DNA of 64,000 bases from a virus: positions 1 through 64,000 of IMG/VR virus record IMGVR_UViG_3300023179_000053, one strand, 5' to 3'. The position numbers and the translations under genes are program-made. Position 1 is the first letter of the stretch. The number at the start of each line of letters is the position of its first letter. Shown piece by piece: positions 1,182-26,555 of the stretch. The notes beneath the pieces are model-generated. The model was not told where the DNA came from, ran no database searches, and was given only the letters and a program-made list of their open reading frames with translations.

Positions 1182-1190
1182 AGGCTCTCC

Positions 1191-1574: not shown

Positions 1575-1577
1575 TAT

Positions 1578-1943: not shown

Positions 1944-1991
1944 ATGCTAGTAAGGCGGGGAGAATGTTTCTCTCCCCGCCACTACCAGCAT
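1944..1991 (-). terminator. Hairpin downstream of the major capsid gene
   Basis: GGCGGGGAGA/TCTCCCCGCC stem, extended by ATGCT/AGCAT. Confidence 0.6.
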
Positions 1992-2002
1992 TTAGGACAC
2001 TA

Positions 2003-3055: not shown

Positions 3056-3075
3056 AGTAATTATTCCTCCTTAAC

Positions 3076-4668: not shown

Positions 4669-4709
4669 AGTCTAATCTTAGTTTAATGAATAGTTTATTA
4701 TACAGCAAA

Positions 4710-4967
4710 TTATCCTATGGCATAGACAGCAACGCTAACATTTGCCGTAATGACTTGAAATTTTGTATAATCGCCTTCCACTTCCACCCAGTTTTTTGCT
4801 GCTGGAATAACCACCCTATGTGGACCACCATTTAACTCTATCACTGCATTTGTACTAGCATTCAAATTTAAAAAGTGAATACATGACGTATGCCCATTAA
4901 TAGAGACGGTATTTGCAGCACTTGTGACTGCCGTGTTTGAATAAATAATACCCATTCCTTGACTCAT
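4710..4967 (-). CDS. Hypothetical virion-associated protein
   Basis: 85-aa ORF overlapping the portal stop (ATGA). Confidence 0.6.
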   Translation of the reverse strand: MSQGMGIIYSNTAVTSAANTVSINGHTSCIHFLNLNASTNAVIELNGGPHRVVIPAAKNWVEVEGDYTKFQVITANVSVAVYAIG

Positions 4968-6571: not shown

Positions 6572-6572
6572 A

Positions 6573-6896
6573 CTACCTCTTTAAATTATCAAAAAAATCT
6601 TCATATGGATCAGGTGTTAGACCATTACTAAGTCTTTCAACTTGATCATCTCTTTCACTATCACTTACTTTTCTTGCGCCATGAACCCATGCGATTTCTC
6701 CATCATCTTTACCTGTCCAATACTTGGCTGCTTGAGTTACTCTTTTCTCAATGTCTTTATCTCCAACAAAACCTTCTGCAGATAAAACTCCATCGCCATC
6801 AGATAGTGGCTTGCCATCTGGCATAATCCAGATACAAACACCATAAGTCCTTGGCGGAACCCATAAACGACTGTTTTTAATAGATTCATGACTCAT
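6573..6896 (-). CDS. Conserved phage hypothetical protein
   Basis: 107-aa ORF directly upstream of portal; leaderless-type -10 upstream. Confidence 0.65.
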   Translation of the reverse strand: MSHESIKNSRLWVPPRTYGVCIWIMPDGKPLSDGDGVLSAEGFVGDKDIEKRVTQAAKYWTGKDDGEIAWVHGARKVSDSERDDQVERLSNGLTPDPYEDFFDNLKR

Positions 6897-6994
6897 TGAA
6901 TATATTGTACACCACTTTTGTTAAAAAAAGAATAAAAATGATGAAAACCAGTACAGCTTTTCATAATCCCAATCAAATATCATACAACTTTGGT

Positions 6995-8923
6995 TTATTT
7001 TACTGGACAAGCACCAGTTGCACAATCACCAAGGGCAATTTCATGATTTCCGGCATTTTGTTGCAGCGGCACTGAGAAGTCTATCTTGCTGATAGCTTTA
7101 GAATATTCTTCTTCAGATATCTCTTCATATGGAGGTAGTGGGAAGTTGTGATCGCTGTGTAGTAAGAACGATACTGACTTAACTGAGTTATCATAATTTT
7201 CTTGCAACCATTTTTTAATTTCTGACAATTCTTCTTTGCGATAATAAACAGTTACAGAAACAGCATTGTCTGCCCAAACAGTCTGCATTTTTTTAACCCA
7301 TTCAAGTTGCTGAATAGCTGTCATTTCACTTGCAAGCACAGAACCATCTGGCGACTTGCATGGGAATTCAACAACATATCTTGTGTGATCTTCTCTACCA
7401 TCAAGACCGACATCCCAAACAACTTTATACCCTCGCTTGCGACATGCATCAACAAGCGGATCGGCAGCGCCAAAACGAACACGCCGTGTATAGTATTTAG
7501 CAAATGCTGGGTGAATACCCGGCGTAACACCTGGAAGTAGCGATAGCGTTCCTGATGGTTGAACAGTAGTTAATCTCACAGAAGGATTCCACCCTCGTTC
7601 TTTGCTATATTGTTTATCAAATTTTTTAAGATTTTCATAAACATCAGATAGCCAAGAAATTTTTTCTTCATTGCACTGAAGTAGTCCAGTAATAGACTGA
7701 CCAAGCCTTGCATTTTTGTGAACAATTTTATTTGTTTTTTCGTATGGATAAGATAATCTTGTAACCATTTTTTGAATTTTATATAAAAGTATAGAAATTT
7801 CTTTAAACTGCTCTAATGAATCAATATTTGGTAAAAAGATTGTTGAAAGATTACACGACTCGCCATCTGCAAGTGCAATCTCTGCACATGGATTAAATCC
7901 TTCAATAGAATTATCTTGTGAAATTTCTCCAAGCCTTCCATGCGTTCTTGCAAGCTTTCTGTTTACTAAACCATACGGTTCGCCAGAACCGTCATACCCT
8001 CTCCATAATTCAGCAAGAATTTCATCATAGGAATCTGCATAAATAGAATTATTGCTGTTTGCTCTCCAGGCAGGAACAGAGCCAGATGACCAATTCTTTG
8101 CACGTAAAAATAAAATATCATCGGGATCGCCAATAGCAATTTGCGCTGAACGACGAGATGAGCCAGAAACAACAATTCTGCCAATAATATTGCAGATATC
8201 AAGCACATCAACTGAACGTAATTTCTTTCCAACTCTATTATCTAATACTTTACAAATATCTACAATTCCATCAACCAGTGCGCCGGGACCAGATGCAGTT
8301 CCACCAAATGTCTTAAGCGGAGCGCCAAACTCACGAATTAAAACGGTTGAATATGTAAAACTTTTACCTGTAACAAAATATGATTCAAGAACTTTGTGAA
8401 GAAGCTCTCGCCATCCTTGTCTTGAATCAGGAACAATAAAGTCTGCATCATTGCTTCTTTCTGCAATAATACTTTTAACTTCTTTCACCTTTGGAAGATC
8501 GTGTATCTTAGATCTTTCTACTGAAAAACCAACTCCACCACCAAGCATTAAATAGTCAAAAACCATTTCAAAATCTTCAATTTTTTCAATATTTGTAAAG
8601 AAACAATTATTTAACGAAGTACCAGAAAATTTTGAAACAAGTGGAGTACCAAGTTGCCACAATGCTCTTCCGGCAACTGTACAGCGTAAATTGAACATAT
8701 GATCAAAAAGTTTTTCTGCTTCTTCTTGTGTGAAATCAACACCAATATCAACTGCGCCATCAATAATTCTTTTAATTGTTTCAACCCATGTTTCAGTTCT
8801 ATCAGTGCCCTCTATTTTACGACTGTATGTCCTAAGATATACAACCTCGCCCATGCCGCCAAAACCCCAAGGTGGAGTTTGATTTGCGTAAGGGGACAGA
8901 AAATTAGATGTAAGTAATGACAT
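6995..8923 (-). CDS. nrdJ: Class II (B12-dependent) ribonucleotide reductase
   Basis: YLRTYSR, GGGVG, RRSAQI, catalytic NPCAE, PSGT and C-terminal CATGACP. Confidence 0.93.
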   Translation of the reverse strand: MSLLTSNFLSPYANQTPPWGFGGMGEVVYLRTYSRKIEGTDRTETWVETIKRIIDGAVDIGVDFTQEEAEKLFDHMFNLRCTVAGRALWQLGTPLVSKFSGTSLNNCFFTNIEKIEDFEMVFDYLMLGGGVGFSVERSKIHDLPKVKEVKSIIAERSNDADFIVPDSRQGWRELLHKVLESYFVTGKSFTYSTVLIREFGAPLKTFGGTASGPGALVDGIVDICKVLDNRVGKKLRSVDVLDICNIIGRIVVSGSSRRSAQIAIGDPDDILFLRAKNWSSGSVPAWRANSNNSIYADSYDEILAELWRGYDGSGEPYGLVNRKLARTHGRLGEISQDNSIEGFNPCAEIALADGESCNLSTIFLPNIDSLEQFKEISILLYKIQKMVTRLSYPYEKTNKIVHKNARLGQSITGLLQCNEEKISWLSDVYENLKKFDKQYSKERGWNPSVRLTTVQPSGTLSLLPGVTPGIHPAFAKYYTRRVRFGAADPLVDACRKRGYKVVWDVGLDGREDHTRYVVEFPCKSPDGSVLASEMTAIQQLEWVKKMQTVWADNAVSVTVYYRKEELSEIKKWLQENYDNSVKSVSFLLHSDHNFPLPPYEEISEEEYSKAISKIDFSVPLQQNAGNHEIALGDCATGACPVK

Positions 8924-8996
8924 TTTATACCTCCGAAAAATGGGATTATTAATAGTATCTTAAGGGTTTACAGTTAGCAATCAAAAATACTAAGGT

Positions 8997-10007
8997 CTAA
9001 ATTGACTTTTCATAATATTTGATGCGATCAACTATCTTATCAGCAATCGCAGACCAAGACTGCTCGACATGCAATATTTTTGCAGATTTTATTGTATGTT
9101 TTTTGAATTCATCATATTCACTCACCACAAGTTCCATTAATTCAATCAATTGATCAAAATCTGGAGATGCCCACATACCTGTATCTTCACCATACTGTTG
9201 TGTATTCCAATCTGCTGAAGAAAATTCAGCATCTAACGGAATGGAATAATTTGCAAAATCTTTACATCCTGTTTCATTTGTCACAATAGTAGGCATACCG
9301 GTACAAATTGACTCAAATGGAATCATACCAAAACCTTCGCCATTTGTTGGATATAACATACAATGACAAGAATGATACAATTTCACTAACGATTCAATAT
9401 CATACGATTCTGGTATTGCAATAATTTGTGGATGCATACTTGCAGGAACAAGTCTGCCATTTAAATATACTTCTGCAAAACAGAAATTTGTGTATTTTAA
9501 GTACAGTTTAAAATCCATATTGCCTTCATATAATTCTAAAAATGCATCTACTGCCATCTGAGCATTTTTTCTTTTTGAATCTCCGCCAACATGTAAAAAA
9601 TTAAAAGTATCTGTTATTTCACGATCAATTATTGCAAATTCATCAGAAATACCATGAGGGATTACATGTATATTGTGATGAACTTGATGTTTTTTATAAA
9701 TTTCTTTTACATAGCTTGATGTTGCCCAAATTTCATCACATTGCCTCATATGATTAATCCAACCAGATGGTATCTTTGTTGACTCCCAAGGAGTATATCC
9801 AACTTTGTAAGAATTTTGATATTGATAATAATACGGCTGGCAAAAATTTACATGATATGGTATTTCATTTCTATTATAAAAAACAGCAACATCTTTTTCT
9901 TTAAGAGCATTAATAGTTGCAATTGCAGCTGTAGAATAACCTTGACTGTACCAGTTTGTACCGCTGATGTCAACTGAGCCTGGAGTAAACCAACTAATTT
10001 TTCTCAT
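8997..10007 (-). CDS. Glycosyltransferase (GT-B/GT4-like)
   Basis: IPHG, RKNA, YPTNGEGFGMIPFES..GMPTI. Confidence 0.88.
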   Translation of the reverse strand: MRKISWFTPGSVDISGTNWYSQGYSTAAIATINALKEKDVAVFYNRNEIPYHVNFCQPYYYQYQNSYKVGYTPWESTKIPSGWINHMRQCDEIWATSSYVKEIYKKHQVHHNIHVIPHGISDEFAIIDREITDTFNFLHVGGDSKRKNAQMAVDAFLELYEGNMDFKLYLKYTNFCFAEVYLNGRLVPASMHPQIIAIPESYDIESLVKLYHSCHCMLYPTNGEGFGMIPFESICTGMPTIVTNETGCKDFANYSIPLDAEFSSADWNTQQYGEDTGMWASPDFDQLIELMELVVSEYDEFKKHTIKSAKILHVEQSWSAIADKIVDRIKYYEKSI

Positions 10008-10013
10008 GTGAAA

Positions 10014-10271
10014 TTACTTTCTGGGTTTTTTGTTTTTTGTAGATTTTTTAGGTGGTGTGATTTCATCATCTAGATTAAAACACTTAACTCCACTGTCTAC
10101 AAACTTTTTAGCATCCTCTCCAGAAATTTCACAGGTTACAGGCATTGCTGAAAACATACATCTCGAAGCTGCAATCCAGCAATCATTTGTTTGAACTATT
10201 GAAATGTAACCAGAATCAACTATTGCAGCGCCGCTGTAATCGTCAGATTCGACTATGCCAATAATTTTCAT
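10014..10271 (-). CDS. Hypothetical protein
   Basis: 85-aa ORF; TGGTATACT 6 nt before ATG. Confidence 0.6.
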   Translation of the reverse strand: MKIIGIVESDDYSGAAIVDSGYISIVQTNDCWIAASRCMFSAMPVTCEISGEDAKKFVDSGVKCFNLDDEITPPKKSTKNKKPRK

Positions 10272-10307
10272 AAAGCGAGTATACCACCATTCTTGTTATT
10301 TAGATCT

Positions 10308-10362
10308 CTAGTATATAAGTATATTAAGTATATAAGTATATTAAGTATATATTAGTATACTT
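10308..10362. repeat. AT-rich tandem AAGTATAT(T) repeats at a divergent strand switch; possible origin or regulatory site
   Basis: Sequence AGTATATAAGTATATTAAGTATATAAGTATATTAAGTATATATTAGTATAC between divergent operons. Confidence 0.7.
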
Positions 10363-10477
10363 AGACTGCTTCGCATGCCTGCATGCGTAGCATAGCATAC
10401 TTTTGCAGAAAAAATGCAAGAAATAAAAAAAATTTTTTGGTGAGTGAACATTCTTTTTTTTCGTGTATACTGTTTTT

Positions 10478-10657
10478 ATGGCAAATTTGATAATCTACAT
10501 TGTTTACATGGTTTTAAACGCATTTTTGTTCAAAACTGCGGTGGAGTGGGGTTGGGATCACAATATCGGGTGGGGAGCATCTTTGATTCTATCACTGATC
10601 TCTAGCTCTTTTGTAATTCTGCACAGATATCGCAATGTACCCTCAAAATCAAATTGA
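10478..10657 (+). CDS. Small two-TM membrane protein
   Basis: Two hydrophobic segments; TATACT 6 nt before the ATG at 10478. Confidence 0.55.
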   Translation: MANLIIYIVYMVLNAFLFKTAVEWGWDHNIGWGASLILSLISSSFVILHRYRNVPSKSN

Positions 10658-11042
10658 TTTTTCTTATTTAAAGAATAAAAAAGTTTTATTATTAAGTGAC
10701 ACCGGTAATCCGTATCCTTATATTATTTCTTTCTTAAAAGAATTAAAAGATTCAGATGTGTACATATATATATGCCCAGCTACAACTTCTAGATTTGTAA
10801 AAATTTGGATTAAATTTACTTTAAACAAAAAAGCACAAATTATAAAAGATAAACACTATAAAATATTCTTTACAGATGAAATTAATAGTTATGAGGTTTG
10901 TATGATTTTTGGTAAAACAAAAAATCCAGATAGAAGCTTGCTAAGAAGAGTTCTTCGGAATATGCTATTATCCTACCAGAATATTACGGTAGTAACAGAA
11001 AGCGGAATTGACTGTGATGAGAATTATACCCTACAGCGGTGA
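10635..11042 (+). CDS. Hypothetical protein
   Basis: ORF in a tightly packed operon. Confidence 0.55.
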   Translation: MYPQNQIDFSYLKNKKVLLLSDTGNPYPYIISFLKELKDSDVYIYICPATTSRFVKIWIKFTLNKKAQIIKDKHYKIFFTDEINSYEVCMIFGKTKNPDRSLLRRVLRNMLLSYQNITVVTESGIDCDENYTLQR

Positions 11043-13824: not shown

Positions 13825-14439
13825 ATGTTGCTCCCAGATGATTGTGTAACTAAAGGTACTAATTCCCTTCCTATTTACAATCCTGAAAAACCAATCAGCT
13901 GGGAGCACGCAGCTAGAAGTGCTGCAAATCATATATGGATAATGTATGATTTTAATTCTCAATATATTTTTGCTAATAAACAATTATTCATTCAAAATAA
14001 TAAATCGGAAATGAATAATTTAAGAAATATAATTGATAAATATATCACATCAGATATATATCTTGAAAAGATTAGCATTGATGAAAAAAAAGATTTATAC
14101 CATCATTTTTCATTATGGATGGCTATTTCGCATAATGCAATTAGTGCAATTAAAAATATTTTACATAAAAATATTGATATCAATGAAGTTGTTGATACTG
14201 TAATTAAAAAACAAAAAGATTATGGTCATAAAAATATTGCAATGTTTGCAATTACTGGTTTAGTTATTAGAATACATGACAAGATTGCACGAGCGGAAAA
14301 TATTCTTGCAAAAAAAAATATGGAAAACGCTGTTCCGGGAGAAAGTTTGTATGATACATTTTTAGATATGATTGGATATTCTATTATTGCTTTAATGTGG
14401 TTGGAGGGAACTTTTATGCTTGAATTGGAGAACAAATGA
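13825..14439 (+). CDS. Nucleotide-modification-associated domain protein (DUF1599-like)
   Basis: KKQKDYG...IRIHDKIAR.EN...ESLYDT.LDMIGY. Confidence 0.75.
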   Translation: MLLPDDCVTKGTNSLPIYNPEKPISWEHAARSAANHIWIMYDFNSQYIFANKQLFIQNNKSEMNNLRNIIDKYITSDIYLEKISIDEKKDLYHHFSLWMAISHNAISAIKNILHKNIDINEVVDTVIKKQKDYGHKNIAMFAITGLVIRIHDKIARAENILAKKNMENAVPGESLYDTFLDMIGYSIIALMWLEGTFMLELENK

Positions 14440-15898: not shown

Positions 15899-16498
15899 AT
15901 GTTAATGCCAGAAAAAATGAAATCTCATATTAATAAAATTTTTAATGGAGAATATAATGTTCCATTTTATCCAAATGATCCATTAATTATTGTTGATATT
16001 GGAGCAAATGTTGGTGGTTTTATCAGATGGGCGGCTTCAAGATGGGCTGGAAGTACATTTTATGGATTTGAGCCAGTTAAAAGTAATTTTGATATTTTGG
16101 AAAAAAATATTTTAGACATACCTAATGTAAGTTTATATAATGTAGCTGTGGGTTCTTCAGAGCGAACACAAAAAATATTTTATGGCAAAAATAATGAAGG
16201 AGAAGCAAGTTTATTTTTTGGCAAAGAACAGGTAAATGATGGTGAAAATGTAACTATTATTAGCGCAAAGCAAATTCCAAATTGTCATATTTTAAAAATT
16301 GATACCGAAGGTTCAGAAATTGAAATTATAGAAAATTTAATTGTTGAACCATTAGTGTATTTAATTGAATATCATTCAGAAAGTAATAGATTAAGAATTG
16401 ATGAATTATTAAAAAATCAATATTCCCTTGTTGGGTCAAAATCAGAAACATTTAATTATGGTATTGTAAAGTATGCCAAAACAAGGTTGCTAAAATAA
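15899..16498 (+). CDS. FkbM-family methyltransferase
   Basis: VDIGANVG, GFEP, LKIDTEGSE, IEYH. Confidence 0.88.
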   Translation: MLMPEKMKSHINKIFNGEYNVPFYPNDPLIIVDIGANVGGFIRWAASRWAGSTFYGFEPVKSNFDILEKNILDIPNVSLYNVAVGSSERTQKIFYGKNNEGEASLFFGKEQVNDGENVTIISAKQIPNCHILKIDTEGSEIEIIENLIVEPLVYLIEYHSESNRLRIDELLKNQYSLVGSKSETFNYGIVKYAKTRLLK

Positions 16499-16599: not shown

Positions 16600-17244
16600 A
16601 TGCCTGAGCTGAATGCTTCAATCCCGCCTATTGAATGCTATGTGCGTGGGAACTTTCTAAGAAATCAACAAGACAGTCACAATCTCAAGTTCCCGTGCGT
16701 AATCTTCGGTGTAGCTTCAATCCCCGACAGAGCGCCCGTATTTCATTTTCTAATGGAAGATGGCGGGGTTTGGTGGAGAGCACCTATAAATGCGTTCTGC
16801 GCCCATCCAGACGCTCCAGAGGTAGATTTAAAAGACTTGGTGATGTGGAACAGCTTTTCGTCATATATCACCGTTACGGTCTTTGAGCACATGCGGGGTA
16901 TGGCAATGACATATATTGATCGTCATAAAAATAAAATTGACGGTAAATATATGTTTACCCTTGATTGGCATAGTCCTGATATTAATACAATCAATACGAA
17001 TTATTCCACAAATCCGGGTCAACACAAATGCGGTCATGTAATACAGAGAAAAGATGGGAATTATGCAATCCAACCAAACAACCGGGTTAGATTATGGGAT
17101 CCCTCATACACCACCAAGAAGGGAGAAAACTTAATAAACCGGTTAATTAATCAAACATTATGGGATGTTGAAGATGGGGATAAATGGATCACCTCAGATG
17201 ATGACAGATATGATTATGAAGTGGTGAATAATGATAATAATTAA
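16600..17244 (+). CDS. Conserved phage hypothetical protein
   Basis: 214-aa ORF; TGGTATAAT 6 nt before ATG. Confidence 0.7.
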   Translation: MPELNASIPPIECYVRGNFLRNQQDSHNLKFPCVIFGVASIPDRAPVFHFLMEDGGVWWRAPINAFCAHPDAPEVDLKDLVMWNSFSSYITVTVFEHMRGMAMTYIDRHKNKIDGKYMFTLDWHSPDINTINTNYSTNPGQHKCGHVIQRKDGNYAIQPNNRVRLWDPSYTTKKGENLINRLINQTLWDVEDGDKWITSDDDRYDYEVVNNDNN

Positions 17245-17806
17245 TAATTTTCTTCCTTTAGAAGAGCAGAAGTCTTTGCTTCAATATGTTTTAAGTAGTC
17301 AAATGCCGTATAGGATCTATGAGACCTATCATTTTGAAGAAAATAGTGTAATGAAAGACAAGGTTCATTCACCAAATCAATTTACACACTTCCTTTACAT
17401 GCATGGCGAGGAAAAAGCATCATCACATATTGGCATTTTACGCCCAATTTTTGATGAATTGCAAAAAAGATGCGGGGTAATAACGATGTTTCGTGCAAAA
17501 ATAAATGTAACCTACCCATACCCTCCATTTATGAGCTATCAATCCCAGGTTCCACACACAGATATGGCATATGATGACGGTCGTAAGGTTCCGCACCAGG
17601 TTTTTCTATATTACATAAATGATGCAGATGGTCCAACTTACTTTTATAATGAAAACAACGAGCTTGTAGACGCTATAGAGCCCAAAATGGGGCGAGCTGT
17701 CATCTTTGACGGATCAATATTGCACGCCGGGTCCAATCCGGTCAAATTTCCTCTCCGTTTTGCCCTAAATATCAACTTTCGGAAGGGCAAAGATCAGATT
17801 CCATAG
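17231..17806 (+). CDS. 2OG-Fe(II) oxygenase
   Basis: PHTD, LYYIND.DG.T.F, GRAVIFDG...HAG, R..LNINF. Confidence 0.85.
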   Translation: MIIINNFLPLEEQKSLLQYVLSSQMPYRIYETYHFEENSVMKDKVHSPNQFTHFLYMHGEEKASSHIGILRPIFDELQKRCGVITMFRAKINVTYPYPPFMSYQSQVPHTDMAYDDGRKVPHQVFLYYINDADGPTYFYNENNELVDAIEPKMGRAVIFDGSILHAGSNPVKFPLRFALNINFRKGKDQIP

Positions 17807-17901
17807 GTCGGTGGCGAAAAAAGACGTATACTAACCAGAAATAAGCCAAAAATTAACGGAAATAACCGGTTGATTGTGGCTTAAAGGCTTTAACTGCGCC
17901 G

Positions 17902-18150
17902 TTAATTGCGCCATTGATTGCGCCATTGGGATGGCGAATGGTTGGCTTCAACCTCTTTTTTATGTTCGGTGGTGTAATAAAGGCGTAGAATATGCACGCA
18001 TGGGTCGCCACCGAGCTCAAACTCCTCTTCTTCCTCCCTATTCATGGGTATTCCATCGTGTGTAGAGCATACTGAGGGACCACAAAAACCCTGGTCAATC
18101 CCGATTTTTAGCCATTCGTCAAAATCAATGCCATTTAAATTTTGTTCCAT
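17902..18150 (-). CDS. Hypothetical protein (MEQNLNG...)
   Basis: ORF with TATACT 6 nt upstream of the ATG at 18150; C/H-rich. Confidence 0.6.
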   Translation of the reverse strand: MEQNLNGIDFDEWLKIGIDQGFCGPSVCSTHDGIPMNREEEEEFELGGDPCVHILRLYYTTEHKKEVEANHSPSQWRNQWRN

Positions 18151-18552
18151 GCCACAAGTATACATAACAAATCAATGTCTGCGACATTCTGAAAAGAAAA
18201 TCTTATACCCCGCCCGAATTTATGATCTATCCTTGTGCAAGAAATAATTATTTATATACCTAATCAATATTATTACTCTGTTAAACCGGCATTGTATACA
18301 CTATAAGTGGCGACTCGTCGCTTTAGGACCGTTATAGGGGAGCAGCGCATCGGACATTCGTTCGGTGCGTTGTTCTTTTCTGGCAACTTTTTTCCCCGCC
18401 CGATCTGTGCAAAAATTTGAGTATATATTTTATAAGGGTTAATTAACATTTTTGATATTGAACAATACCTCTGTCTCCCCCGGTCAAACGGGTGTACAAG
18501 CAGCACATAGCTGCCTTGTACACCCGCAAGTGTAGCCGTAATGCGATTCGCA

Positions 18553-18585
18553 GTTGAGTACACTTACTTGGGGTAATAGTAAGTT
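18553..18585 (+). promoter_or_regulatory. Cassette core box, first of 11 copies; putative promoter or protein-binding site
   Basis: Contains inverted ACTTACT-N9-AGTAAGT; ends in a TANNNT hexamer (TAAGTT/TAAGGT/TAGGTT) in all copies, 25-70 nt before SD-led ATGs. Confidence 0.7.
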
Positions 18586-18637
18586 GTTCTTTACCAACCC
18601 CAACCGAAACAGAAGTAGGTGGGAAAGGGGGAACGCA

Positions 18638-18904
18638 ATGTTCCTGTTCAACTATGTAATCGCAGTACGCACCGATGACGGTGTGGAGTTGCCATACCTG
18701 ATCAAGGAGAACGCACCGCACAGTGCGTACTCACTCATCGTGAAACTCATCAACCCAGACGGTTCAGTTGAGCCGAAGCAACAGGTGTTGAGTCTCGAAG
18801 GTATGGAGCGTGGTAAGGACTACTCTCTCTTTGAGAGCTGGGCTGAATACGACAAGGCTCTGACTCTGGAGAAGGTGTTCCGTCGCATGTTCAGCGGTCG
18901 CTAA
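18638..18904 (+). CDS. Cassette 1 hypothetical protein (MFLFNYVIAV...)
   Basis: SD AAGGGGG before ATG 18638; terminator at 18916-18952. Confidence 0.75.
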   Translation: MFLFNYVIAVRTDDGVELPYLIKENAPHSAYSLIVKLINPDGSVEPKQQVLSLEGMERGKDYSLFESWAEYDKALTLEKVFRRMFSGR

Positions 18905-18915
18905 GACGCTGGATA

Positions 18916-18952
18916 GGGGGCGGGGTCGCAAGACCCCGCCCCTTCTTTTTTT
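18916..18952 (+). terminator. Intrinsic terminator of cassette 1; equivalents near 19268, 19782, 20332, 20940, 21443, 21899, 22443, 22950, 23538 and 24115
   Basis: GC-rich stems, mostly with GCAA/GAAA tetraloops, followed by T-tracts after every cassette ORF. Confidence 0.9.
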
Positions 18953-19079
18953 GTTTCGGTGGGCGGGCATGCTGCGTCTAGCCGACTTGCACGCCCACAA
19001 ACACGGTACAAGGTATCTCTCAGTTGAGTACACTTACTTCACCTGATAGTAAGGTGGTTGGCAGAAGGGAGGACTACCA

Positions 19080-19181
19080 ATGGACATCACCGTGTCTATC
19101 AGCGAGTACCTCGGCTACGGTATCACCGTCGCCGTGTTCGGCGCTGTGGTCATCGTGTCGTACCTGCGCAACAAGCGCTAG
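19080..19181 (+). CDS. Cassette 2: 33-aa single-TM peptide MDITVSISEYLGYGITVAVFGAVVIVSYLRNKR (not in ORF track)
   Basis: SD GGGAGG; hydrophobic helix plus basic tail; occupies the ORF slot of the cassette. Confidence 0.75.
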   Translation: MDITVSISEYLGYGITVAVFGAVVIVSYLRNKR

Positions 19182-19453
19182 TCCGTACACAGCAATAAGC
19201 ACCACTGGTCCACTACCCGAAGCATTGCCTTTGGGAGAAGGGAGAGAGATGAGAGTGCTCAGGGTGCGAGGGGGGCGAGCCGAAAGGCTCGCCCCCCTCT
19301 TTTTTTGTCTTTTGCGTGGTGGGCATGCGTGCGCCTAGCCGGCTTGCACGCCACTCCACACGGTGCATAGGTTCACTAGGTTGAGTACACTTACTCGGCG
19401 TGATAGTAAGTTAGTTCTCGTGGTGGCGAGCCAACACGCCAGGGAGGTACACC

Positions 19454-19759
19454 ATGGCACAAGGCAAGCAAGCACACCCGACCGCACGGCTCAAGGGCAC
19501 GGCGGTCACACCAGCGGTCGCAACGACCGCACAAGTGGTGGTTGCCCCAGCAACGACCACACCGCAAGTGGTGGCTGCCCCAGCAGTCACTCCGCAAGCG
19601 CCGAAGCGCAAGGCTCAGCCTGCGCCGAAGCGCAAGCGCCAGCGCAAGCCAATGAGCGAAGCGACGAAGCGCAAGATTCGTCGTGCTCACCGCAAGCGCA
19701 CTCGTCGCAATCGAATCCGCAAGGCACTCCGCCGAGCGGTTCGGTTCGGCAAGAAATAA
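19454..19759 (+). CDS. Cassette 3: highly basic protein with an Arg/Lys-rich C-terminus
   Basis: SD GGGAGG; ATT.QVV.AP repeats, then KRKRQRK...RRAHRKRTRRNR. Confidence 0.75.
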   Translation: MAQGKQAHPTARLKGTAVTPAVATTAQVVVAPATTTPQVVAAPAVTPQAPKRKAQPAPKRKRQRKPMSEATKRKIRRAHRKRTRRNRIRKALRRAVRFGKK

Positions 19760-19995
19760 ACCCACCGCTTGCCACCACGGGGGCGGGGCGGGGCGAAAGC
19801 CCCGCCCCGCTCCTTTTTTTGTCTTTTGAAGGGCGGGCATGCGTGCGCCTAGCCGGCTTGCACGCCTTTTCACCCGATACACTCACTTACTCGGTTGAGT
19901 ACACTTACTTGGCGTAATAGTAAGTTGTTGAGTACCGCCAAGCACCTAGTCACGCAAGTAGCGTGGGGTAAGCAAGGTGGTGGAGGGAATACGCA

Positions 19996-20301
19996 ATGGC
20001 AATGGAAATCATCACCGCCATCGTTCAGGCATTGGCAAGCCTGAACCCCAACAAGCCCCAAGTGGGCGTGTGGTTGCCCGAAGCGACCTACACGAACGCA
20101 GGCACGGTGCTTGACGACAAGGCGTTCAACCGCCACTACGCCGACTGGTACAGCCGTATCGTTTCGGTGGCAGGGCAAGTGAATGTCGTGTGGGTTGCCG
20201 AAATCCGCATTGACGAAAACGGCATCAACACGGTGGCGGAGTGTTATCTCAGCCCTACCGCAATGGTTGAGCCAACCGTAATACTCGGCGTGCGCAAGTA
20301 G
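19996..20301 (+). CDS. Cassette 4 hypothetical protein
   Basis: SD GGAGGG; followed by terminator. Confidence 0.75.
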   Translation: MAMEIITAIVQALASLNPNKPQVGVWLPEATYTNAGTVLDDKAFNRHYADWYSRIVSVAGQVNVVWVAEIRIDENGINTVAECYLSPTAMVEPTVILGVRK

Positions 20302-20527
20302 GCACGCCAGCGCCGAACCTCCCACGGCGCAGGGGGCGGGGTCGCAAGACTCCGCCCCCGCTTTTTTTTGCCTTTTGAAGGGCGGGCATGCGTGCGCCTA
20401 GCCGGCTTGCACGCCCTTTCACCAGATACACTTACTCTCTGAGTTGAGTACACTTACTTTATCTAATACTAAGGTAATACACATCAAGTCGTGCTGAACA
20501 GAAGTAGGTACGAGATTGGGGAATGTA

Positions 20528-20932
20528 ATGGATACGGATAAACTTCGGATAATCCTGATGAGTGTCTACTTGATACTCAAAGAGCGTTACAACAAGTTGG
20601 GTGAAATCATTGAGAATGCCCCACCCGCACCAGAACACGCTGAGAAAGCGGTGGACTTGGTGCTTCACTGCGTTACCGCCATTCAGGAAGTTCATCATCA
20701 CCGAGATGATTTGGTCATTCACCTCAATGAGGGTATGGTCAACGAAAAAGTACGGTTCCAGCCAGACAGTCAGCAGGCATTGGCTCTGATAATGGGGTTG
20801 CGTGAAGTCAACATCACCATCACCAAACTAGCAGAACTGTTGCCGTTGGCGCACCGAGATGCCAACTGGTTGCGAACGACTGGAAATGTTGTAAACCACG
20901 GCATTCAGGAGTATGTCGATGGACTGAAATAA
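20528..20932 (+). CDS. Cassette 5 hypothetical helical protein (MDTDKLR...)
   Basis: SD GGGGA; followed by terminator. Confidence 0.72.
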   Translation: MDTDKLRIILMSVYLILKERYNKLGEIIENAPPAPEHAEKAVDLVLHCVTAIQEVHHHRDDLVIHLNEGMVNEKVRFQPDSQQALALIMGLREVNITITKLAELLPLAHRDANWLRTTGNVVNHGIQEYVDGLK

Positions 20933-21126
20933 GAAGTCGGGCGGGGGGCGAAAGCCTCCCGCCCTCTTTTTTTGTGATCTGGTGGGCGGGCGAGCTGCGA
21001 CTAGCTGTCTTGCACGCCCACTCACACGCTACACTTACTCACCAAGTTGAGTACACTTACTTGATGTGATAGTAAGGTGTTATTCACAAGGCGGTGCTCG
21101 GATAGCACCGCAGAAAGGGGAGCGTC

Positions 21127-21432
21127 ATGCTACCCAACAGCGAGAATAAAGCAGTTGAGAAATTGGTCAACCTGCTTGCGAATACAGGCTACACCGTCAA
21201 CCAAAAACGTTGGGATGATGGGGCAGAAACAAAAGAAGTTCAGATTCCGCTCGGAACTGACTTCATGTTTCTGAAACTCTATCGCCCGTCAGAAAACGAC
21301 AGTTGGGTGCTGTCGGAACTGACTACTGGCAACGAACTTGCCATGATGTGGCAACCAACGCCGTATGAAAATGCGGTGAAGCAGATCGTTCATGAAATCA
21401 TTGACGGTCGCTTAGTCAAAACAAAACGCTAG
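21127..21432 (+). CDS. Cassette 6 hypothetical protein
   Basis: SD AAGGGGAG; followed by terminator. Confidence 0.75.
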   Translation: MLPNSENKAVEKLVNLLANTGYTVNQKRWDDGAETKEVQIPLGTDFMFLKLYRPSENDSWVLSELTTGNELAMMWQPTPYENAVKQIVHEIIDGRLVKTKR

Positions 21433-21648
21433 GAGGAGCGCAAGGGGAGCGGGGCGAAAGCCCCGCTCCCTTTTTTGCTTTTTGCGTGGTGGGCGTGCTG
21501 CGCCTAGCCGGCTTGCACACCACTTCTCCTGACACACTCACTCACTAGGTTGAGTACACTTACTTGGCGTAATAGTAGGTTGTTGAGTGTCGCCAAGCAC
21601 CTAGTCACGCAAGTAGCGTGGGGTAAGCGAAGCGATAAGGGGAATGTA

Positions 21649-21852
21649 ATGTCGCTATTCCAAAAAGGCGATAAGGTCACATTCATTCGTGGTAAGCGCA
21701 AAGGCGAGACTTGGGTGGTTGAGTTTCATAACTACCACGGCGTTGGCGTTTATCCACTCAAAGGCGAAACCCAACACAAGCGACCAATCGTCGGTATGCT
21801 GGCAGACGCAAACGACCTGATACTCACCGAGCGTGTGTTGACGGTCGTGTAA
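21649..21852 (+). CDS. Cassette 7 small SH3/KOW-like protein (MSLFQKGDKVTFIRGKRKGETWVV)
   Basis: SD AAGGGG; KOW-like GD.V....G..KG pattern. Confidence 0.7.
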   Translation: MSLFQKGDKVTFIRGKRKGETWVVEFHNYHGVGVYPLKGETQHKRPIVGMLADANDLILTERVLTVV

Positions 21853-22094
21853 TCCCCCCAAGACACCCTTGTGGCTAGGGTGTGACGCTATGCGTCAGAG
21901 TGGCGAGCAGGAGTGGTGTCCTGCTCGCCACTTTCTTTTTTTGTTTTTTTGCGGGTGGGCGAGCTGCGCCTAGCCGGCTTGCACACCCGCACACACGGCA
22001 CATAAACTCTCTCAGTTGAGTACACTTACTTGATACAATACTAAGTTGTTGAGTGCCAGCCGAAACCCAAGTAAGTTGGCAGGGAGAAATAGCA

Positions 22095-22436
22095 ATGCCA
22101 AAAGTCAAACTCAGCGACCTTGTGAAGTCTTTTCAGTTCACACGAAAGGCGCAAAAAGTAAAGGAATACAAGGGAGTAACGGTGAACGGCAAGAGCCCGC
22201 ATCGTTGGGCGGAATACGCTAGAAAGCACCACACAGGTGACTTGCTTGCTTGCCAATTCATCTTTCTTGGTGCGATTAGTCAGCGCACCGTAGACACTTT
22301 CGTTCAGAAAGTGCGTGATGAAATTGATACTGACCAGAAAATTGCCCTACCCACCGAGCGTGAGTTGGAGCAAGCCCAGGAGCAAGACCGTATCGGTACA
22401 GGGTTGCCGACCAAGTTCTGGGTGAAGGGAGTGTAA
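22095..22436 (+). CDS. Cassette 8 protein (MPKVKLSDL...)
   Basis: SD AGGGAG; N-terminus shared with cassettes 9-11. Confidence 0.75.
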   Translation: MPKVKLSDLVKSFQFTRKAQKVKEYKGVTVNGKSPHRWAEYARKHHTGDLLACQFIFLGAISQRTVDTFVQKVRDEIDTDQKIALPTERELEQAQEQDRIGTGLPTKFWVKGV

Positions 22437-22630
22437 GAAGTTGGGCGGGGGCGAAAGCCCCCGCCCTTTTTCTTTGTCTTGCGGGTGGGCGAGAGGCGCT
22501 TAGCCAGCTTGCACGCCCGCTCACACGGGGCATAGACACAATGAATTGAGTACACTTACTTGACCTAATAGTAAGTTGTTGAGTGCTGACGGGGACGCAA
22601 TTCCCTACCACCCCGCAGTGGAGAAAAGCA

Positions 22631-22930
22631 ATGGCAAAAGTCAAACTCAGCGAGATTCAGAATCAGCTGGTCAAGCGTGGGCGAGATGCCTATCAGAACC
22701 CCGAACTCGAAGCGGAACTGATGACACTCGACCCGTCAGACCCCGATTCGGCAATCTCGTTTGACGAAGCGCAATTCACGGGAGACCCCGACAGTGACGC
22801 ATACACGAACCACAAGAACTTGTGGCGTGCTCGTGTCGCTTCGTGCGCCGAGCGTGTGTTGCCCGAAGCGGAACTCACGATTCAGTGGACTCGTGAGACC
22901 CACGAGATGATTGTCTCGTTCCGCAAGTAA
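22631..22930 (+). CDS. Cassette 9 protein, paralog family A (MAKVKLSEIQNQLVKRGRDAY)
   Basis: SD GGAG; clear paralog of cassettes 10 and 11. Confidence 0.85.
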   Translation: MAKVKLSEIQNQLVKRGRDAYQNPELEAELMTLDPSDPDSAISFDEAQFTGDPDSDAYTNHKNLWRARVASCAERVLPEAELTIQWTRETHEMIVSFRK

Positions 22931-22980
22931 TACCCCGCAATGGGAATCGCCCCGCCGAGTGACACGGCGGGGCTTTTCTC

Positions 22981-23019
22981 GCTGGCGTTCTTGATGCTAT
23001 TCGCATCTTGACCGCCAGC
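22981..23019 (-). repeat. Inverted-orientation copy of the cassette inverted-repeat element (also 23568-23606 and 24145-24181)
   Basis: Cores GCTATTCGC, GCTAATCGC and GCTAGGCGC are reverse complements of the forward GC-RNNTA-GC core. Confidence 0.75.
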
Positions 23020-23226
23020 CGCCCTGGTAGCGCTCTCTCGATCTCTTTAGTACACATTTCTCAACGTAAGCGGGCGTACAAGGAGCGCTTAGCTCCCTTG
23101 TACGACCGGCTCGCTGGTTCATACCCATAGGCAGTTGAATACACTTACTCGGCGCAATAGTAAGGTATTGAGTGTTGATGGGCGCTGAGTAAATCAGCAC
23201 TAGACCCCCACAACAGGAGAAACAGA

Positions 23227-23520
23227 ATGGCTAAGGTCAGTCTGTCGGCAATACAGTCACAACTCGTCAAGCGTGGGCGTGATGCCTACGAGAACGAGGC
23301 GCTAGCCGAGGAGTTGCGAGGGCTTGACCCGAGCGACCCCGACAGCGCCATCAAGTTCGCTGACGCTCAGGGCGACCCCAACGATGAGAAATACACCAAC
23401 CACAAGAACTTGTGGCGTGGGCGTGTCTCGTCGGTCGCATCGCAACTCGGTATCCCCGATGGGGCGTTGAGCATCATCTGGACATTCTCGGGTGAGATGG
23501 TCGTGACCTACAAGCGCTAG
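23227..23520 (+). CDS. Cassette 10 protein, paralog family A
   Basis: SD AGGAG; LDPSDPDSAI and YTNHKNLWR shared with cassette 9. Confidence 0.85.
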   Translation: MAKVSLSAIQSQLVKRGRDAYENEALAEELRGLDPSDPDSAIKFADAQGDPNDEKYTNHKNLWRGRVSSVASQLGIPDGALSIIWTFSGEMVVTYKR

Positions 23521-23810
23521 ACATAGGGCGCAGAGAGTGGGCGAGGCGCAAGCCTCGCCCATTTCTCGCTGGTGTTCTAGATGCTAATCGCATCTTGACC
23601 ACCAGCCTTTGGGTTTCCCTATCTCTCTCATTTTTAATACTCATTTTCTAATAGTTTTGTTTATGTGGGTGGGCGAAGCAGCGCTTAGCTGATTGCACAC
23701 CCACTCTCTCGGTACACGCATTCGCATAGTTGAGCGCACTTACTTGGCATGATAGTAGGTTGATACATGTGAACGGCGAGCCGCCAACAAACACGAAAGA
23801 GAGAACAACT

Positions 23811-24089
23811 ATGAAAGTCAGACTTTCCGACATTCAGAGTCAACTGGTGAAGCGTGGGCGTGACGCATTCCAAGACCCAATCTTGGAAGCAGGCTTGCTC
23901 TCGCTCAATGCCGACAACGAAGACGAAGCATTCGTCTACGAAGCAGGCAAAGGCAATCCCGAAGATGAGAACTACGGTTCGCACAAAAACAAGGTGCGGG
24001 CTCGTATCGTCTCAGTGGCAGAACAGAACAGTCTGTCGGTGTCCATTATGTGGACATTCGCAGGCGACTGTGTAATCACACTGAAATAA
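23811..24089 (+). CDS. Cassette 11 protein, paralog family A
   Basis: MKVRLSDIQSQLVKRGRDAF...HKNKVRAR...IMWTF. Confidence 0.85.
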   Translation: MKVRLSDIQSQLVKRGRDAFQDPILEAGLLSLNADNEDEAFVYEAGKGNPEDENYGSHKNKVRARIVSVAEQNSLSVSIMWTFAGDCVITLK

Positions 24090-24903
24090 CAACCAGGCTT
24101 GCCGTTCGCAGGATAAGGCGCACCGAAAGGTGCGCCTTTTTCCGTTGGTGGTCAAGATGCTAGGCGCATCTTGACCACCAATTTTTTCAATGTTTTTGTC
24201 TCTATAAATTTAATACAAATTTCTAATGCCTTTGTTTGGCGGGTGCTCCAAATAAAAATGCATTTTTATTTGCACACCCGTGTTTTTTTATTTATTTATT
24301 CCTTTACTTTAATCTATATTCCTAATTACATCTATGCATTTGTTTATGTATTTCAAATTGTAATTAGTTTTGACTATGCGCACACAAGACAAATTTTTTT
24401 TGGGCATACCGTGGTATGCCAAAGGCTGTGGTGAATGCTGTTTAGTTCTCTCCGGCTATTGCCATACAGATCTATACATTACCCCGCACATTATTATCTA
24501 GGTAATAACAACGGTGTAATCATTACGGCAAACACCACGTATTAAAATTTCTAAATCCCTCGATAGACCTCCACTCAAATTCCTGTTTAGTTCTACCGAT
24601 TAAAAGGGTGATGTATCTGGCAATAAAAAAATCGGGATTTATTTGTTTCTTTCAGTATATGTAAATGCCTTTATGTACTTTTAGACACCCTAATGGGATA
24701 TATATACGTTCTCAAATTATGAGCACTTCACAATTGCACACTTTTTATCTGTTTTTACCCCATTTTTCCCTACTTTTCCCCACTTTTTACCACTTTTTAC
24801 TATGTTTTTGCCTATTTTTATAGTTTTTTTTGTGCCGATTTTAGGCAAAATTTTTTTGGAATATGCCTATTTCTAAGCATATTCCTTTATTTTTGGCTAC
24901 AAA

Positions 24904-24919
24904 TGTTCCACGTGGAACG
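24904..24919. other. parS-like palindrome TGTTCCACGTGGAACG
   Basis: Perfect 14-bp palindrome close to the bacterial chromosomal parS consensus TGTTNCACGTGAAACA, in a long non-coding region. Confidence 0.65.
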
Positions 24920-24974
24920 CTGAACTACAATCTATTTTAATATATACAACGAGATTGGAGTGGTCGTCTCTTAC

Positions 24975-25039
24975 TATTTAACCACGTAAGCATAAGTTTG
25001 TGAGTATTTAACCACGTAAGCATAAGTTTGTGAGTATTT
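24975..25039. repeat. Exact 30-bp tandem duplication
   Basis: TATTTAACCACGTAAGCATAAGTTTGTGAG x2. Confidence 0.9.
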
Positions 25040-26555
25040 CTTGTTTTAGGTCTTCTAGGAGAGAGATACAGTTATCATATGATATATCATGATCAAACCT
25101 TACCCCGGCATTTTTAAGTTTCTTTAAAACCTTTTGTGTTGATTCTATTGTTTTAAGCTTTTTTTCTTCAGTACAACGATAGCAATCGCACATTTGTTCT
25201 AAATCTAAATTATTTGTTATTCCCATGTTACAAAACCTTCCGGAGTTCTATAAGTATAGCCATCTTTATCTTTCTCCTCCAAATAATACGATTTATCCAC
25301 TTCTTCAAAGAGTTGTTTTAATTGATCTTGCAATACCTGAAGCTTTACAATAGCCATATCTTGTCCAGATATCACACCAGATATAAATTCTCTATCCGGG
25401 TCGTCTGAGTCTAAATCAGATGTTTCTCTTTGATATTCCATGTTCATTCTACCAAGAGATTCAATTTCATATTGGACTTTTCTTAAAACAATATTTGCTA
25501 ATGATTGCATTCTTAGAGGTGTATTTTCTTTACTCATTATTGTTCTTCACAGCTTTCTAATGAAAAGAAACTTATATCCCAACCGTAATATTCTTTTAGC
25601 AATTCAACTGCATTTGTATATGCTTGATCTTCATTTTCTGCTTCTACAGAAGTAATTACTACAGCATAATCATGTGCAAATGTTAGGTTATAGCTAGCCA
25701 TTTTTGCCCTCCTCGTCATATAAATATCCAATGACAGCAATCATTATTAGTCCAAATACTATTATTACTCCTGTTAAAATATCCCAATCTCTCACTATTC
25801 GACCATCTCTCTATTACTCTTTATTGCATCTAAAGAATTCTCTAATCTCCTCCAGATAGCTATACATAAGGTTATAATCCCCGATAGGCAAAGGAATACC
25901 CAAAACTTCCAACTCTTGAAAAACGCAGTGAACATAATTTGTTTTTTCCTCCATTTGTTGATAATTTGTCATTATGATAATTAAGCTTTAGTGTTAGTAC
26001 TATTTATCCATTTTGTAGCGAAATCATAAAGATCAACTGAAAGAATATCTATCATCTCTACAATTTCTTCTCGTGGATAATTTTCTATTGGCTCCCATAA
26101 AGTAACTGACTCATCAGTTTCATCAAGTATTGCTTCGATTATCTGATCAGCATTGTAATTTTCTGGGAAATCAGATGTATAATGCATACAGGCTTGGTAT
26201 AAAGCTTTTTGTTTTATTTCTCTGATTAATTCTTCAGTTAAAATCATTTAAAAGACTCCTTTGGTAATTTGGATCTAACCCACATTGTTATAGCTCTGTG
26301 TGTTTCTTCATCTTCAGGTTCAGTTATATATTCATACTGAGCTTCTAAAATTGATATCAATTCACACACTAAACTAAATTCATCTGGGAATGGTTCAAAT
26401 TTATTCACAGTCGTGTCCATATGATGCTTCATCGGCAGTTAATAGTTTATTGCATTCTATGCATTTTGATACATAGATTTGTTCACCTTTAACTAGCACT
26501 TTTGCTATGCCAATTTTGCCGGCAATATATTCAGAATTTTCATCATTTACTTTTG

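Follow-up and report, generated by a model that had tools for sequence, protein, structure and literature searches.

The host-takeover module of phage SPO1 and the pre-early region of phage T5 each string together 20-25 small genes whose functions are unknown. Like the ~11-kb direct terminal repeats of Streptomyces BE1 phages, these regions hold closely spaced, largely co-oriented small genes, and the cluster BE Streptomyces phage NootNoot carries 20-25 of them in a 10.8-kb direct terminal repeat (PMC5764925). In T4-type myoviruses, promoter-early stem-loops (PeSLs), repeats composed of a terminator and a promoter, flank ORFans, undergo homologous recombination and even give rise to mini-circles (Arbiol et al. 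2010, PMC2839356; Comeau et al. 2014, PMC4122927). In Cluster K mycobacteriophages, SAS is a 13-bp asymmetric box including the ribosome-binding site beside the start codon, whereas ESAS is a 17-bp imperfect inverted repeat located immediately upstream of SAS, whose function is unknown (PMC3203893). Here, we describe an array of 11 single-gene units in the 93.8-kb IMG/VR virus record IMGVR_UViG_3300023179_000053 (G000, the genome under study; L-numbers designate the loci compared with it), whose first 64 kb constitute the window that was analysed. The array occupies a GC-rich island at 18.45-24.3 kb of the window. We favour, with moderate confidence, the reading that the island comprises 11 independent transcription units for small accessory genes, which form an early or accessory module of the host-takeover type and whose scaffolds undergo concerted evolution and, through homologous recombination, bring about the turnover of cassettes.

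All 11 units lie on the + strand. The island has a GC content of 52-59%, which rises abruptly by 20 points at both borders, and the AT-rich backbone (~33% GC overall, 30-37% over most of its length) resumes on either side. Each unit is composed, in this order, of an imperfect hairpin of ~40 nt, a 25-nt linker, a box, a Shine-Dalgarno (SD) sequence, a small ORFan and a GC hairpin with a T-tract (Table 1). The box pattern was found in 11 copies, all in the same orientation, but neither elsewhere in the 93.8-kb record nor in any of 100 shuffled sequences. Successive boxes are separated by 357-603 bp, and the TTG in the right arm of the hairpin precedes the TTG of the box by 38 bp in unit 1 and by 37 bp in units 2-11. 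Every unit contains a strong SD sequence and an open reading frame (ORF) of 33-134 amino acids starting with ATG. After eight ORFs, there is a strong GC hairpin with T-tract, made up of a 10-16-bp stem and a GNRA-type tetraloop (six bases in one case). The terminators of units 9-11 have weaker T-tracts and precede a hairpin of another family, GGTGGTCAAGATGC-loop-GCATCTTGACCACC, with stems of up to 17 bp, which is restricted to these three paralogous units and likewise found after the last three units of L060. In each of the 10 intergenic gaps, a GC hairpin with T-tract is followed within ~100 bp by a box with a TAnnnT hexamer. The array is closed by a 12th copy of the upstream hairpin, which retains the arms, has an AT-rich loop and is not followed by a box. 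A sequence-only reading of this DNA had proposed such an array of 11 cassettes, with GC hairpin terminators, mostly unrelated cargo and an exactly fixed offset between hairpin and box. The array was recovered as described, and the offsets proved exact when re-measured; the terminators are strong in eight units, with weaker T-tracts in units 9-11, and these three are the only units with paralogous cargo.

The boxes and hairpins of 39 units from four genomes (G000, L060, L064 and L069) were aligned. TAnnnT was found at a single aligned position, box positions 27-32, in 39/39 units, with an offset of one base in L069. The hexamer reads TAAGTT, TAAGGT or TAGGTT in G000, TAAGGT, TAGTGT or TATAGT in L060, and TATTGT, TATAGT or TATTCT in L064, where six of the eight units possess a TGn extension; all units of L069 have TGyTATAGT, a textbook extended -10. 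Both extended -10 and TAnnnT-only promoters are known, and the hexamer is best described as a -10 element. A conserved TT(G/T)AG(T/C) (TTGAGT-like) element is located 20-21 bp upstream of it, and the region upstream of the box is GC-rich. The distance from the -10 to the start codon ranges from 24 to 69 nt; with predicted transcript starts ~7 nt downstream of the -10, the leaders would measure 18-63 nt. Each box would act as a promoter composed of a TAnnnT -10 and a TTGAGT-like upstream element, giving rise to a transcript that has a short leader with a strong SD sequence and would end at the GC hairpin with its T-tract. Given the non-canonical spacing of the two elements, either the host polymerase accepts this geometry or another factor reads the upstream element.

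Relatives were retrieved through the flanking 2OG-Fe(II) oxygenase gene and through the protein family encoded by units 9-11 (terminal family A), yielding 18 distinct loci. At least 13 of them, from different samples, carry a GC-rich island, which lies 12-20 GC points above the 30-37% backbone in each locus and directly follows the 2OG-Fe(II) oxygenase gene in the loci reached through that gene. The relatives have the same architecture (terminator, hairpin, ~25 nt, box, leader, SD, small ORF), with genome-specific sequences: the box core is TTGAGTACACTTACT in G000, TTGAGTACACATTCTCAATGCC in L060, TTGAGCATACTTAC in L064 and TTTAGTACCCATTT in L069. An exact scan for the 15-mer box core in public viral contigs gave single chance matches only, so that the box sequence is specific to G000, and blastn against 50,697 phage records detected no DNA similarity to the island. 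The backbone codes for a portal, a prohead protease, a capsid protein, ribonucleotide reductase, glycosyltransferases and a 1133-residue DnaE-type polymerase. As judged by the capsid protein (50% identical to those of Streptomyces cluster BE phages such as NootNoot) and the DnaE-type polymerase (38% identical to that of BK-cluster Streptomyces phages), the closest cultured relatives are Streptomyces siphoviruses of these two clusters. By this comparison, the island is a conserved organ of an AT-rich, siphovirus-like clade that is distantly related to the Streptomyces BE/BK phages.

The cargo of the islands is mosaic. In the comparison of cassettes, which leaves out the nearest relatives P0002-P0004 (69-80% identity), the order of gene families in G000 is B C G D... 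H A A A, as opposed to. C B G E. A A A in L060, in which the genes related to cargo 1 and cargo 2 are swapped relative to G000. The order B C is kept in L061. L073 has D (in two copies) and H in common with G000, with B, C and G absent from the portion compared, and L076 and L078 have family E in common with L060. Family A, in 2-4 copies, stands at the 3' end of every array. Nucleotide homology between G000 and L060, determined with blastn, begins and ends at terminators or scaffolds. Since cassette order and content differ between diverged relatives, with junctions at these elements, shuffling of the cassettes stands, as does the earlier proposal that the repeats seed homologous exchange. Boxes are 0.79-0.84 identical within genomes and 0.37-0.62 between genomes, and the ~130-bp terminator-hairpin-promoter scaffolds, homogeneous in each genome, evidently evolve in concert. 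The 11 scaffold copies would recombine homologously, such that cassettes are gained, lost and reordered as in the PeSLs of T4. The lack of a recognisable recombinase, previously noted for the window, holds for the whole 93.8-kb record: tyrosine recombinase (PF00589) had no match at E<=1 in the record, compared with matches in 14/14 control genomes, and neither serine (Resolvase) nor HUH (Y1_Tnp) domains were found in it. Searches of the record for RecT and AAA_24 (Sak4) were also negative, so that the enzyme behind the homologous exchange may be that of the host.

The island also differs from the backbone in its codon usage. Its GC content at third codon positions (GC3) is 0.64, compared with 0.24 in the backbone, at nearly equal second-position GC contents (GC2, 0.38 and 0.37, respectively). 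AGA accounts for 3% of Arg codons in the island versus 63% in the backbone, UUA for 1% versus 34% of Leu codons, and ACA for 21% versus 54% of Thr codons. These three codons, avoided in the island, are those of three of the four phage tRNAs (Thr-UGU, Asn-GUU, Arg-UCU and Leu-UAA). The compositional contrast is upheld across the whole clade and hence selected, not a passing effect of horizontal transfer. As the codons of the island genes are GC-rich and presumably host-like, the tRNA pool of the host could serve to translate these genes earlier than, or without recourse to, the phage tRNAs, whereas the AT-rich backbone would lean on codons served by the phage's own tRNAs. The contrast fits a first-wave module. 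A 40-point jump in GC3, combined with module codon usage complementary to the phage tRNA set, goes beyond what is described and, if this reading of the codons is true, provides an unusually clean natural case of a single virus dividing up translation resources over time.

A cultured counterpart was found in the terminal repeat of NootNoot (NC_042009.1, L079), which was examined at positions 1-10800. It contains 21 small co-oriented genes, with a GC content of 52-62% compared with 47-49% in the adjoining sequence and a GC3 of 0.75 versus 0.51. Most of its gaps show a GC terminator hairpin, a palindrome of the TGTCCGGnCCGGACA type and a TTGNNN-N17/18-TAGACT promoter, followed by an SD sequence. 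The genome announcement (PMC5764925) is silent on the GC content and the scaffold features of BE repeats. G000 and NootNoot share a similar layout: one strand carries most of the small-gene array together with its inner neighbours, the opposite strand carries the structural genes, and ~15-16 kb separate the capsid gene from the array's inner edge. By analogy, a position at or within a terminal repeat is probable for the G000 island, with the genome physically ending in the non-coding gap at 24.2-25.0 kb, and its genes are most likely expressed early, for host takeover or counter-defence.

With PeSLs, the island shares a repeated terminator-plus-promoter motif that flanks single ORFans in a hyperplastic region, the absence of a dedicated recombinase, and relatives that differ by insertions, deletions and replacements of cassettes with junctions in the motif. 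It differs from them in several respects. PeSLs consist of a consensus sigma-70 promoter with an AT-rich UP region and one stem-loop, whereas the -35-like element of the island is 20-21 bp away from the -10 and an additional ~40-nt covarying hairpin is set at a fixed distance of 25 nt. Moreover, the island is one contiguous GC-rich block in an AT-rich genome, and its lineage is unrelated to the T4-likes; known here from sequence alone, it is an analogue of PeSLs, of which mini-circles are a feature, rather than a member by descent. The terminal-repeat modules resemble it in their small co-oriented genes, of which each, or nearly each, has its own promoter and terminator, a likeness that holds for the island and for NootNoot; the latter, however, has promoters with canonical spacing and a variable distance from palindrome to promoter. 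SAS/ESAS elements similarly combine an imperfect inverted repeat that has a variable spacer with an asymmetric conserved box in one orientation that heads a subset of small genes. The box of the island, in contrast, is promoter-like and situated 24-69 nt before the start codon, with a separate SD sequence after it, its hairpin adjoins the terminator and lies 25 nt upstream of the box, and there is no sequence similarity. By analogy, the island resembles a PeSL-rich hyperplastic region fused, in its working, with an early terminal module of the SPO1/T5/BE type. There are three departures from these systems: the covarying, strand-asymmetric hairpin at fixed spacing, the non-canonical distance between upstream element and -10, and the strong synonymous recoding that affects the module as a whole. 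Mobile regulatory cassettes, whose descriptions have so far been confined to T4-like myoviruses, are thereby extended to an unrelated, widespread clade of uncultured AT-rich phages and, on our reading of NootNoot, to the terminal repeats of cultured Streptomyces BE phages, in which they are amenable to bench tests. The cassettes further amount to a compact collection of small ORFans, which plausibly encode proteins for host takeover or anti-defence and come with ready-made expression signals.

The hairpin upstream of the box folds with a mean z-score of -4.2 relative to shuffled sequence. Its outer stem covaries both within and between genomes, with one pair being CG in 20, UA in 11, GC in 4 and AU in 3 copies and the adjacent pair GC in 20 and UA in 17, and its apex retains GC-(3-5 nt)-GC, e.g. 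GCCTAGC or GCTTMAGC. The + strand forms the more stable fold in 36/39 copies, with 68 G-U pairs compared with 18 on the - strand (Wilcoxon p = 5e-7), which points to the folded single strand of sense polarity, and not to a duplex palindrome, as the target of selection. The spacing between hairpin and box, 37-38 bp in G000, is kept to within about two bases in the relatives (alignment indels) while the linker sequence drifts to 21-48% identity, pointing to a DNA-level geometry with the promoter. These two properties pull in opposite directions. Tentatively, the hairpin is regarded as a second, U-tract-independent terminator or insulator that also stabilises 3' ends: positioned between a terminator and the next promoter, it would insulate against or terminate read-through RNA. 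The main alternative, a possible but less probable one, is a binding site for a regulator; a function as a recombination site is doubtful. When searched with Rfam covariance models, only tRNAs reached the threshold in the window, and all matches within 17800-25200 fell on terminators and far below the gathering scores. A covarying, strand-asymmetric hairpin at a fixed distance from every promoter goes beyond what is described. It is conceivable, at low probability, that hairpin, linker and box form a new cis element acting, at a set distance from the promoter, as a folded single strand of sense polarity, which would couple termination to the next initiation (hand-over or insulation) or be the target of a structure-specific protein that regulates and mobilises ORFan cassettes (a 'phage integron' independent of the recombinase families); the GC-rich recoding would then represent a programmed decoupling of first-wave translation from the phage tRNAs.

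Several points weigh against the reading as an early module of independent units. Promoter activity, timing and transcript ends are inferred from the sequence. The TTGAGT-like element is placed 3-4 bp beyond the canonical -35 distance, and the boxes were not called by a simple sigma-70 consensus scan. The host-like character of the island codons is a presumption. Since the backbone has canonical TATAAT promoters, those of the island may need another factor and need not be immediate-early. An RNA role of the hairpin requires read-through past strong terminators and does not obviously account for the exact 37-bp spacing. The host-takeover function is proposed by analogy, with no functional match for any cargo, and cargo homology between the G000 island and the NootNoot repeat was not detected, so that their likeness is architectural. 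As for a terminal position, no second copy of the island is present in the L073 record, and IMG/VR classes the G000 record as linear without end repeats. Finally, the latter is ~90% complete (CheckV), and a gene could be missed in it.

A rival reading is a regulon in which the box, perhaps together with the hairpin as a DNA palindrome or cruciform, binds a dedicated phage-encoded or virion-delivered activator, repressor or sigma-like factor that switches the 11 promoters together, comparable to T4 MotA/AsiA, which acts on middle promoters, or to phi29 p4 at sites preceding its promoters. On this view, the box would be genome-specific through co-evolution with the factor rather than through gene conversion. 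Consistent with this possibility, the TTGAGT-like element has its non-canonical distance of 20-21 bp from the -10, the box core is confined to the island, and the spacing between hairpin and box remains fixed over a drifting linker. In addition, a 6-7-bp dyad (ACTTACT...AGTAAGT) is present in 8/11 G000 boxes, and extra box-like copies were observed upstream of hairpins 1, 10, 11 and 12, where they are AT-rich, and, in units 4 and 7-10, also downstream of the -10. However, neither a sigma factor (Pfam domains Sigma70_r2 and Sigma70_r4) nor a recognisable DNA-binding regulator was found in the record, most phage genes here being unannotatable, and a Pfam search for a T7-type single-subunit RNA polymerase had no match in the record, the same search matching 0 control genomes. 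Furthermore, the dyad does not exceed shuffled sequence in L060 or L069, the G-U asymmetry of the hairpin (36/39 copies) is unexpected for a duplex binding site, and the NootNoot analogue uses canonical host-type promoters. Overall, a factor-dependent regulon appears unlikely. Of the earlier proposal of a host-takeover module with a dedicated, factor-dependent promoter for each gene, reminiscent of SPO1 and T5, the single promoter per gene in such a module is retained as the best fit, given TAnnnT in 39/39 units, an island kept in place across the clade and the NootNoot analogue; a dedicated factor may be needed, given the non-canonical distance of the upstream element, but no sigma factor was found in the record.

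The sequence-only reading had alternatively suggested an integron-like array with its own recombination sites, in which the hairpin would be an attC-like folded single-strand site and an unrecognised recombinase would move the cassettes. Tandem single-gene cassettes headed by imperfect folded inverted repeats, which covary and are strand-asymmetric like a folded attC, and a cassette content and order that vary between relatives are indeed integron-like features. The island nevertheless has no integrase, attI or common Pc promoter, and the searches of the record gave no tyrosine, serine or HUH recombinase domain; its cassettes have their own promoters and terminators, unlike those of integrons; and the hairpin arms, GGGCGnGCA...TGCACGCCC, are devoid of the RYYYAAC/GTTRRRY cores of attC. 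Moreover, homogenisation extends over the whole ~130-bp scaffold within genomes, as predicted by homologous exchange. With no recombinase, own promoters and no attC core, the array is not an integron, and we give very little credence to capture by an unrecognised enzyme of this kind. The probability that the block is a recent foreign insert or an assembly chimera rather than a functional organ of the phage, as might be suspected from the abrupt 20-point GC jump at both borders and the all-ORFan cargo, is next to nil, since at least 13 related contigs from different samples carry the same architecture, with the same flanking gene where the flank is covered, the scaffold diverges in step with the backbone, AT-rich backbone is present on both sides, no mobility gene was found, and the compositional contrast has been upheld over long divergence without amelioration.

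Table 1. Features of the GC-rich island and positions of the leader stem (window coordinates unless a locus is given).
Feature	Position	Strand	Details
Array entry	18417-18426; 18471-18487	+	box-like TTGAGTATAT; 17-mer CTGTCTCCCCCGGTCAA, just before hairpin 1
Unit 1 scaffold	18489-18585	+	hairpin 18489-18526, linker, box 18553-18585, putative -10 TAAGTT 18580-18585
Cargo 1	18638-18904	+	88 aa, ORFan, SD plus ATG
Terminator 1	18915-18944	+	GC stem, GCAA loop, T-tract
Unit 2 scaffold	18959-19055	+	hairpin 18959-18998, box 19023-19055
Cargo 2	19080-19181	+	33-aa hydrophobic peptide
Terminator 2	19268-19299	+	
Unit 3 scaffold	19319-19412	+	hairpin 19319-19359, box 19380-19412
Cargo 3	19454-19759	+	101 aa, K/R-rich C-terminus, family G
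Terminator 3	19779-19814	+	
Unit 4 scaffold	19828-19926	+	hairpin 19828-19870, box 19894-19926
Cargo 4	19996-20301	+	101 aa, ORFan
Terminator 4	20332-20359	+	
Unit 5 scaffold	20377-20475	+	hairpin 20377-20419, box 20443-20475
Cargo 5	20528-20932	+	134 aa, ORFan
Terminator 5	20939-20964	+	
Unit 6 scaffold	20981-21078	+	hairpin 20981-21022, box 21046-21078
Cargo 6	21127-21432	+	101 aa, ORFan
Terminator 6	21442-21473	+	
Unit 7 scaffold	21486-21581	+	hairpin 21486-21523, box 21549-21581
Cargo 7	21649-21852	+	67 aa, ORFan
Terminator 7	21897-21934	+	
Unit 8 scaffold	21950-22047	+	hairpin 21950-21991, box 22015-22047
Cargo 8	22095-22436	+	113 aa
Terminator 8	22443-22466	+	
Unit 9 scaffold	22481-22577	+	hairpin 22481-22520, box 22545-22577
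Cargo 9	22631-22930	+	99 aa, conserved terminal family A
Terminator 9 and second-type hairpin	22949-23018	+	terminator 22949-22973, weak T-tract; hairpin 22982-23018
Unit 10 scaffold	23046-23166	+	AT-rich box-like TTTAGTACACATTTCTCAA 23046-23064, hairpin 23066-23114, box 23134-23166
Cargo 10	23227-23520	+	97 aa, family A
Terminator 10 and second-type hairpin	23539-23605	+	terminator 23539-23560, weak T-tract; hairpin 23569-23605
Unit 11 scaffold	23665-23761	+	hairpin 23665-23704, box 23729-23761
Cargo 11	23811-24089	+	92 aa, family A
Terminator 11 and second-type hairpin	24115-24182	+	terminator 24115-24138; hairpin 24144-24182 with T-tract
Array end	24209-24280	+	AT-rich box-like TTTAATACAAATTTCTAAT 24209-24227, 12th hairpin ~24239-24280
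Leader stem copies, window	18604-18619, 20496-20506 (variant), 22055-22080		
Leader stem copies, relatives	L060:12172-12194, L064:12062-12085, L069:15726-15748, L074:5368-5392, 7225-7249, 7672-7696		

The island ORFs are real genes, with GC fractions of 0.59, 0.38 and 0.64 at the three codon positions. None of the cargo proteins had a significant match in Pfam or PHROG. They are mutually unrelated except for the paralogues of units 9-11, which show 48-61% identity. Homologues at the amino-acid level were detected in related contigs for cargo 1, 2, 3, 4 and 8 and for terminal family A. Those of cargo 1 are 48-50% identical and located in L060, where they occupy the third unit, and in L061; cargo 2, a single-helix hydrophobic peptide, shows 82% identity to its homologue in L060 and 52% to that in L061. 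The 3' part of cargo 3 aligns to L060. Its product has an Ala/Pro/Thr-rich N-terminal part and an extremely basic tail, and resembles nucleoid-associated or nucleic-acid-binding proteins in its composition. Cargo 4 has two homologues (59% and 48% identity), both in L073, whereas cargo 5-7 are unique to G000 and cargo 5, specifically, has no relative among the loci compared. Cargo 8 has a partial homologue in L073 alone and shares no more than its first ~9 residues with units 9-11, and cargo 11 shows 73% identity to the gene that closes the L060 array. AlphaFold2 predicted a small alpha/beta domain for the family A protein (pLDDT 82). This model had no Foldseek match in the PDB at E<=0.001, a wide VIA-align search peaked at a Z of 5.5, which corresponds to chance level, and the ESM Atlas returned viral hypotheticals only. 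A profile search for family A retrieved 75 clusters (E<=0.001) from a library without names or annotation. All known members of the family are unnamed viral and metagenomic proteins.

Other interpretations of the promoter region were considered and discarded. The stems of N4 promoters have 5-7 bp and a 3-nt loop, and those of the island hairpins are far longer than would suit an N4-type hairpin promoter; the Pfam search for a T7-type polymerase would not necessarily detect an N4-type enzyme. A sigma-54 element in the right arm of the hairpin (GG-N10-GC) was dismissed on inspection of its misfitting bases. When TTGCAC in the same arm was taken as the -35 of a second promoter, a TAnnnT hexamer was found at 18 bp in 2/11 units only. 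The dyad of the box, clear in G000, was no more frequent in L060 and L069 than in shuffled sequences and was abandoned as a clade-wide operator.

At the array entry, both TTGAGTATAT and CTGTCTCCCCCGGTCAA are kept upstream of the first hairpin in L060, L061 and L064 (flanking proteins 53-69% identical), with a weaker and looser conservation in L069 (flanking proteins 48% identical). They could serve as an entry signal of the array or mark the vicinity of a genome end. Towards the other end, degenerate AT-rich copies of the box, TTTAGTACACATTTCTCAA, TTTTAATACTCATTTTCTAAT (~23640-23660) and TTTAATACAAATTTCTAAT, lie 26-38 nt upstream of hairpins 10, 11 and 12, respectively, and similar copies stand ahead of the last units of L060 and L064. 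TAnnnT is not present at the expected distance downstream of these copies, which may represent additional sites for a factor or remnants of cassettes that were emptied. A third element was noticed in the 5' leaders of some cassettes. It is a short stem with covarying arms and a 12-nt loop, GAAAC-NN-AAGTA, which ends 10-25 nt before the start codon; other leaders contain hairpins with AAGTA-type loops. Eight exact copies occur in ~55 kb of island sequence, compared with ~0.4 expected from unrelated loci, and the element may stabilise the 5' end or serve as a translational operator.

Two glycosyltransferases, a DUF1599 'nucleotide modification associated' protein, an FkbM-type methyltransferase and a 2OG-Fe(II) oxygenase are encoded at 8997-10007, 13825-14439, 15899-16498, 17231-17806 and 51003-52130, with the genes for the latter three proteins shortly before the island. 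Hypermodification of the phage DNA is a possibility, and it could have to do with the different base composition of a module that would be read first. Finally, a leaderless-type arrangement was observed on the - strand at 47880-47897, where 6 nt separate the end of a consensus TATAAT from the ATG of ORF 47062-47880. Similarly, several island genes of L065 (11600-11690, 12330-12400 and 14160-14230) begin 6-7 nt after a TAnnnT located 17 bp downstream of TTGTGT. These arrangements hint at a host that translates leaderless mRNAs, e.g. a member of the Actinobacteria.

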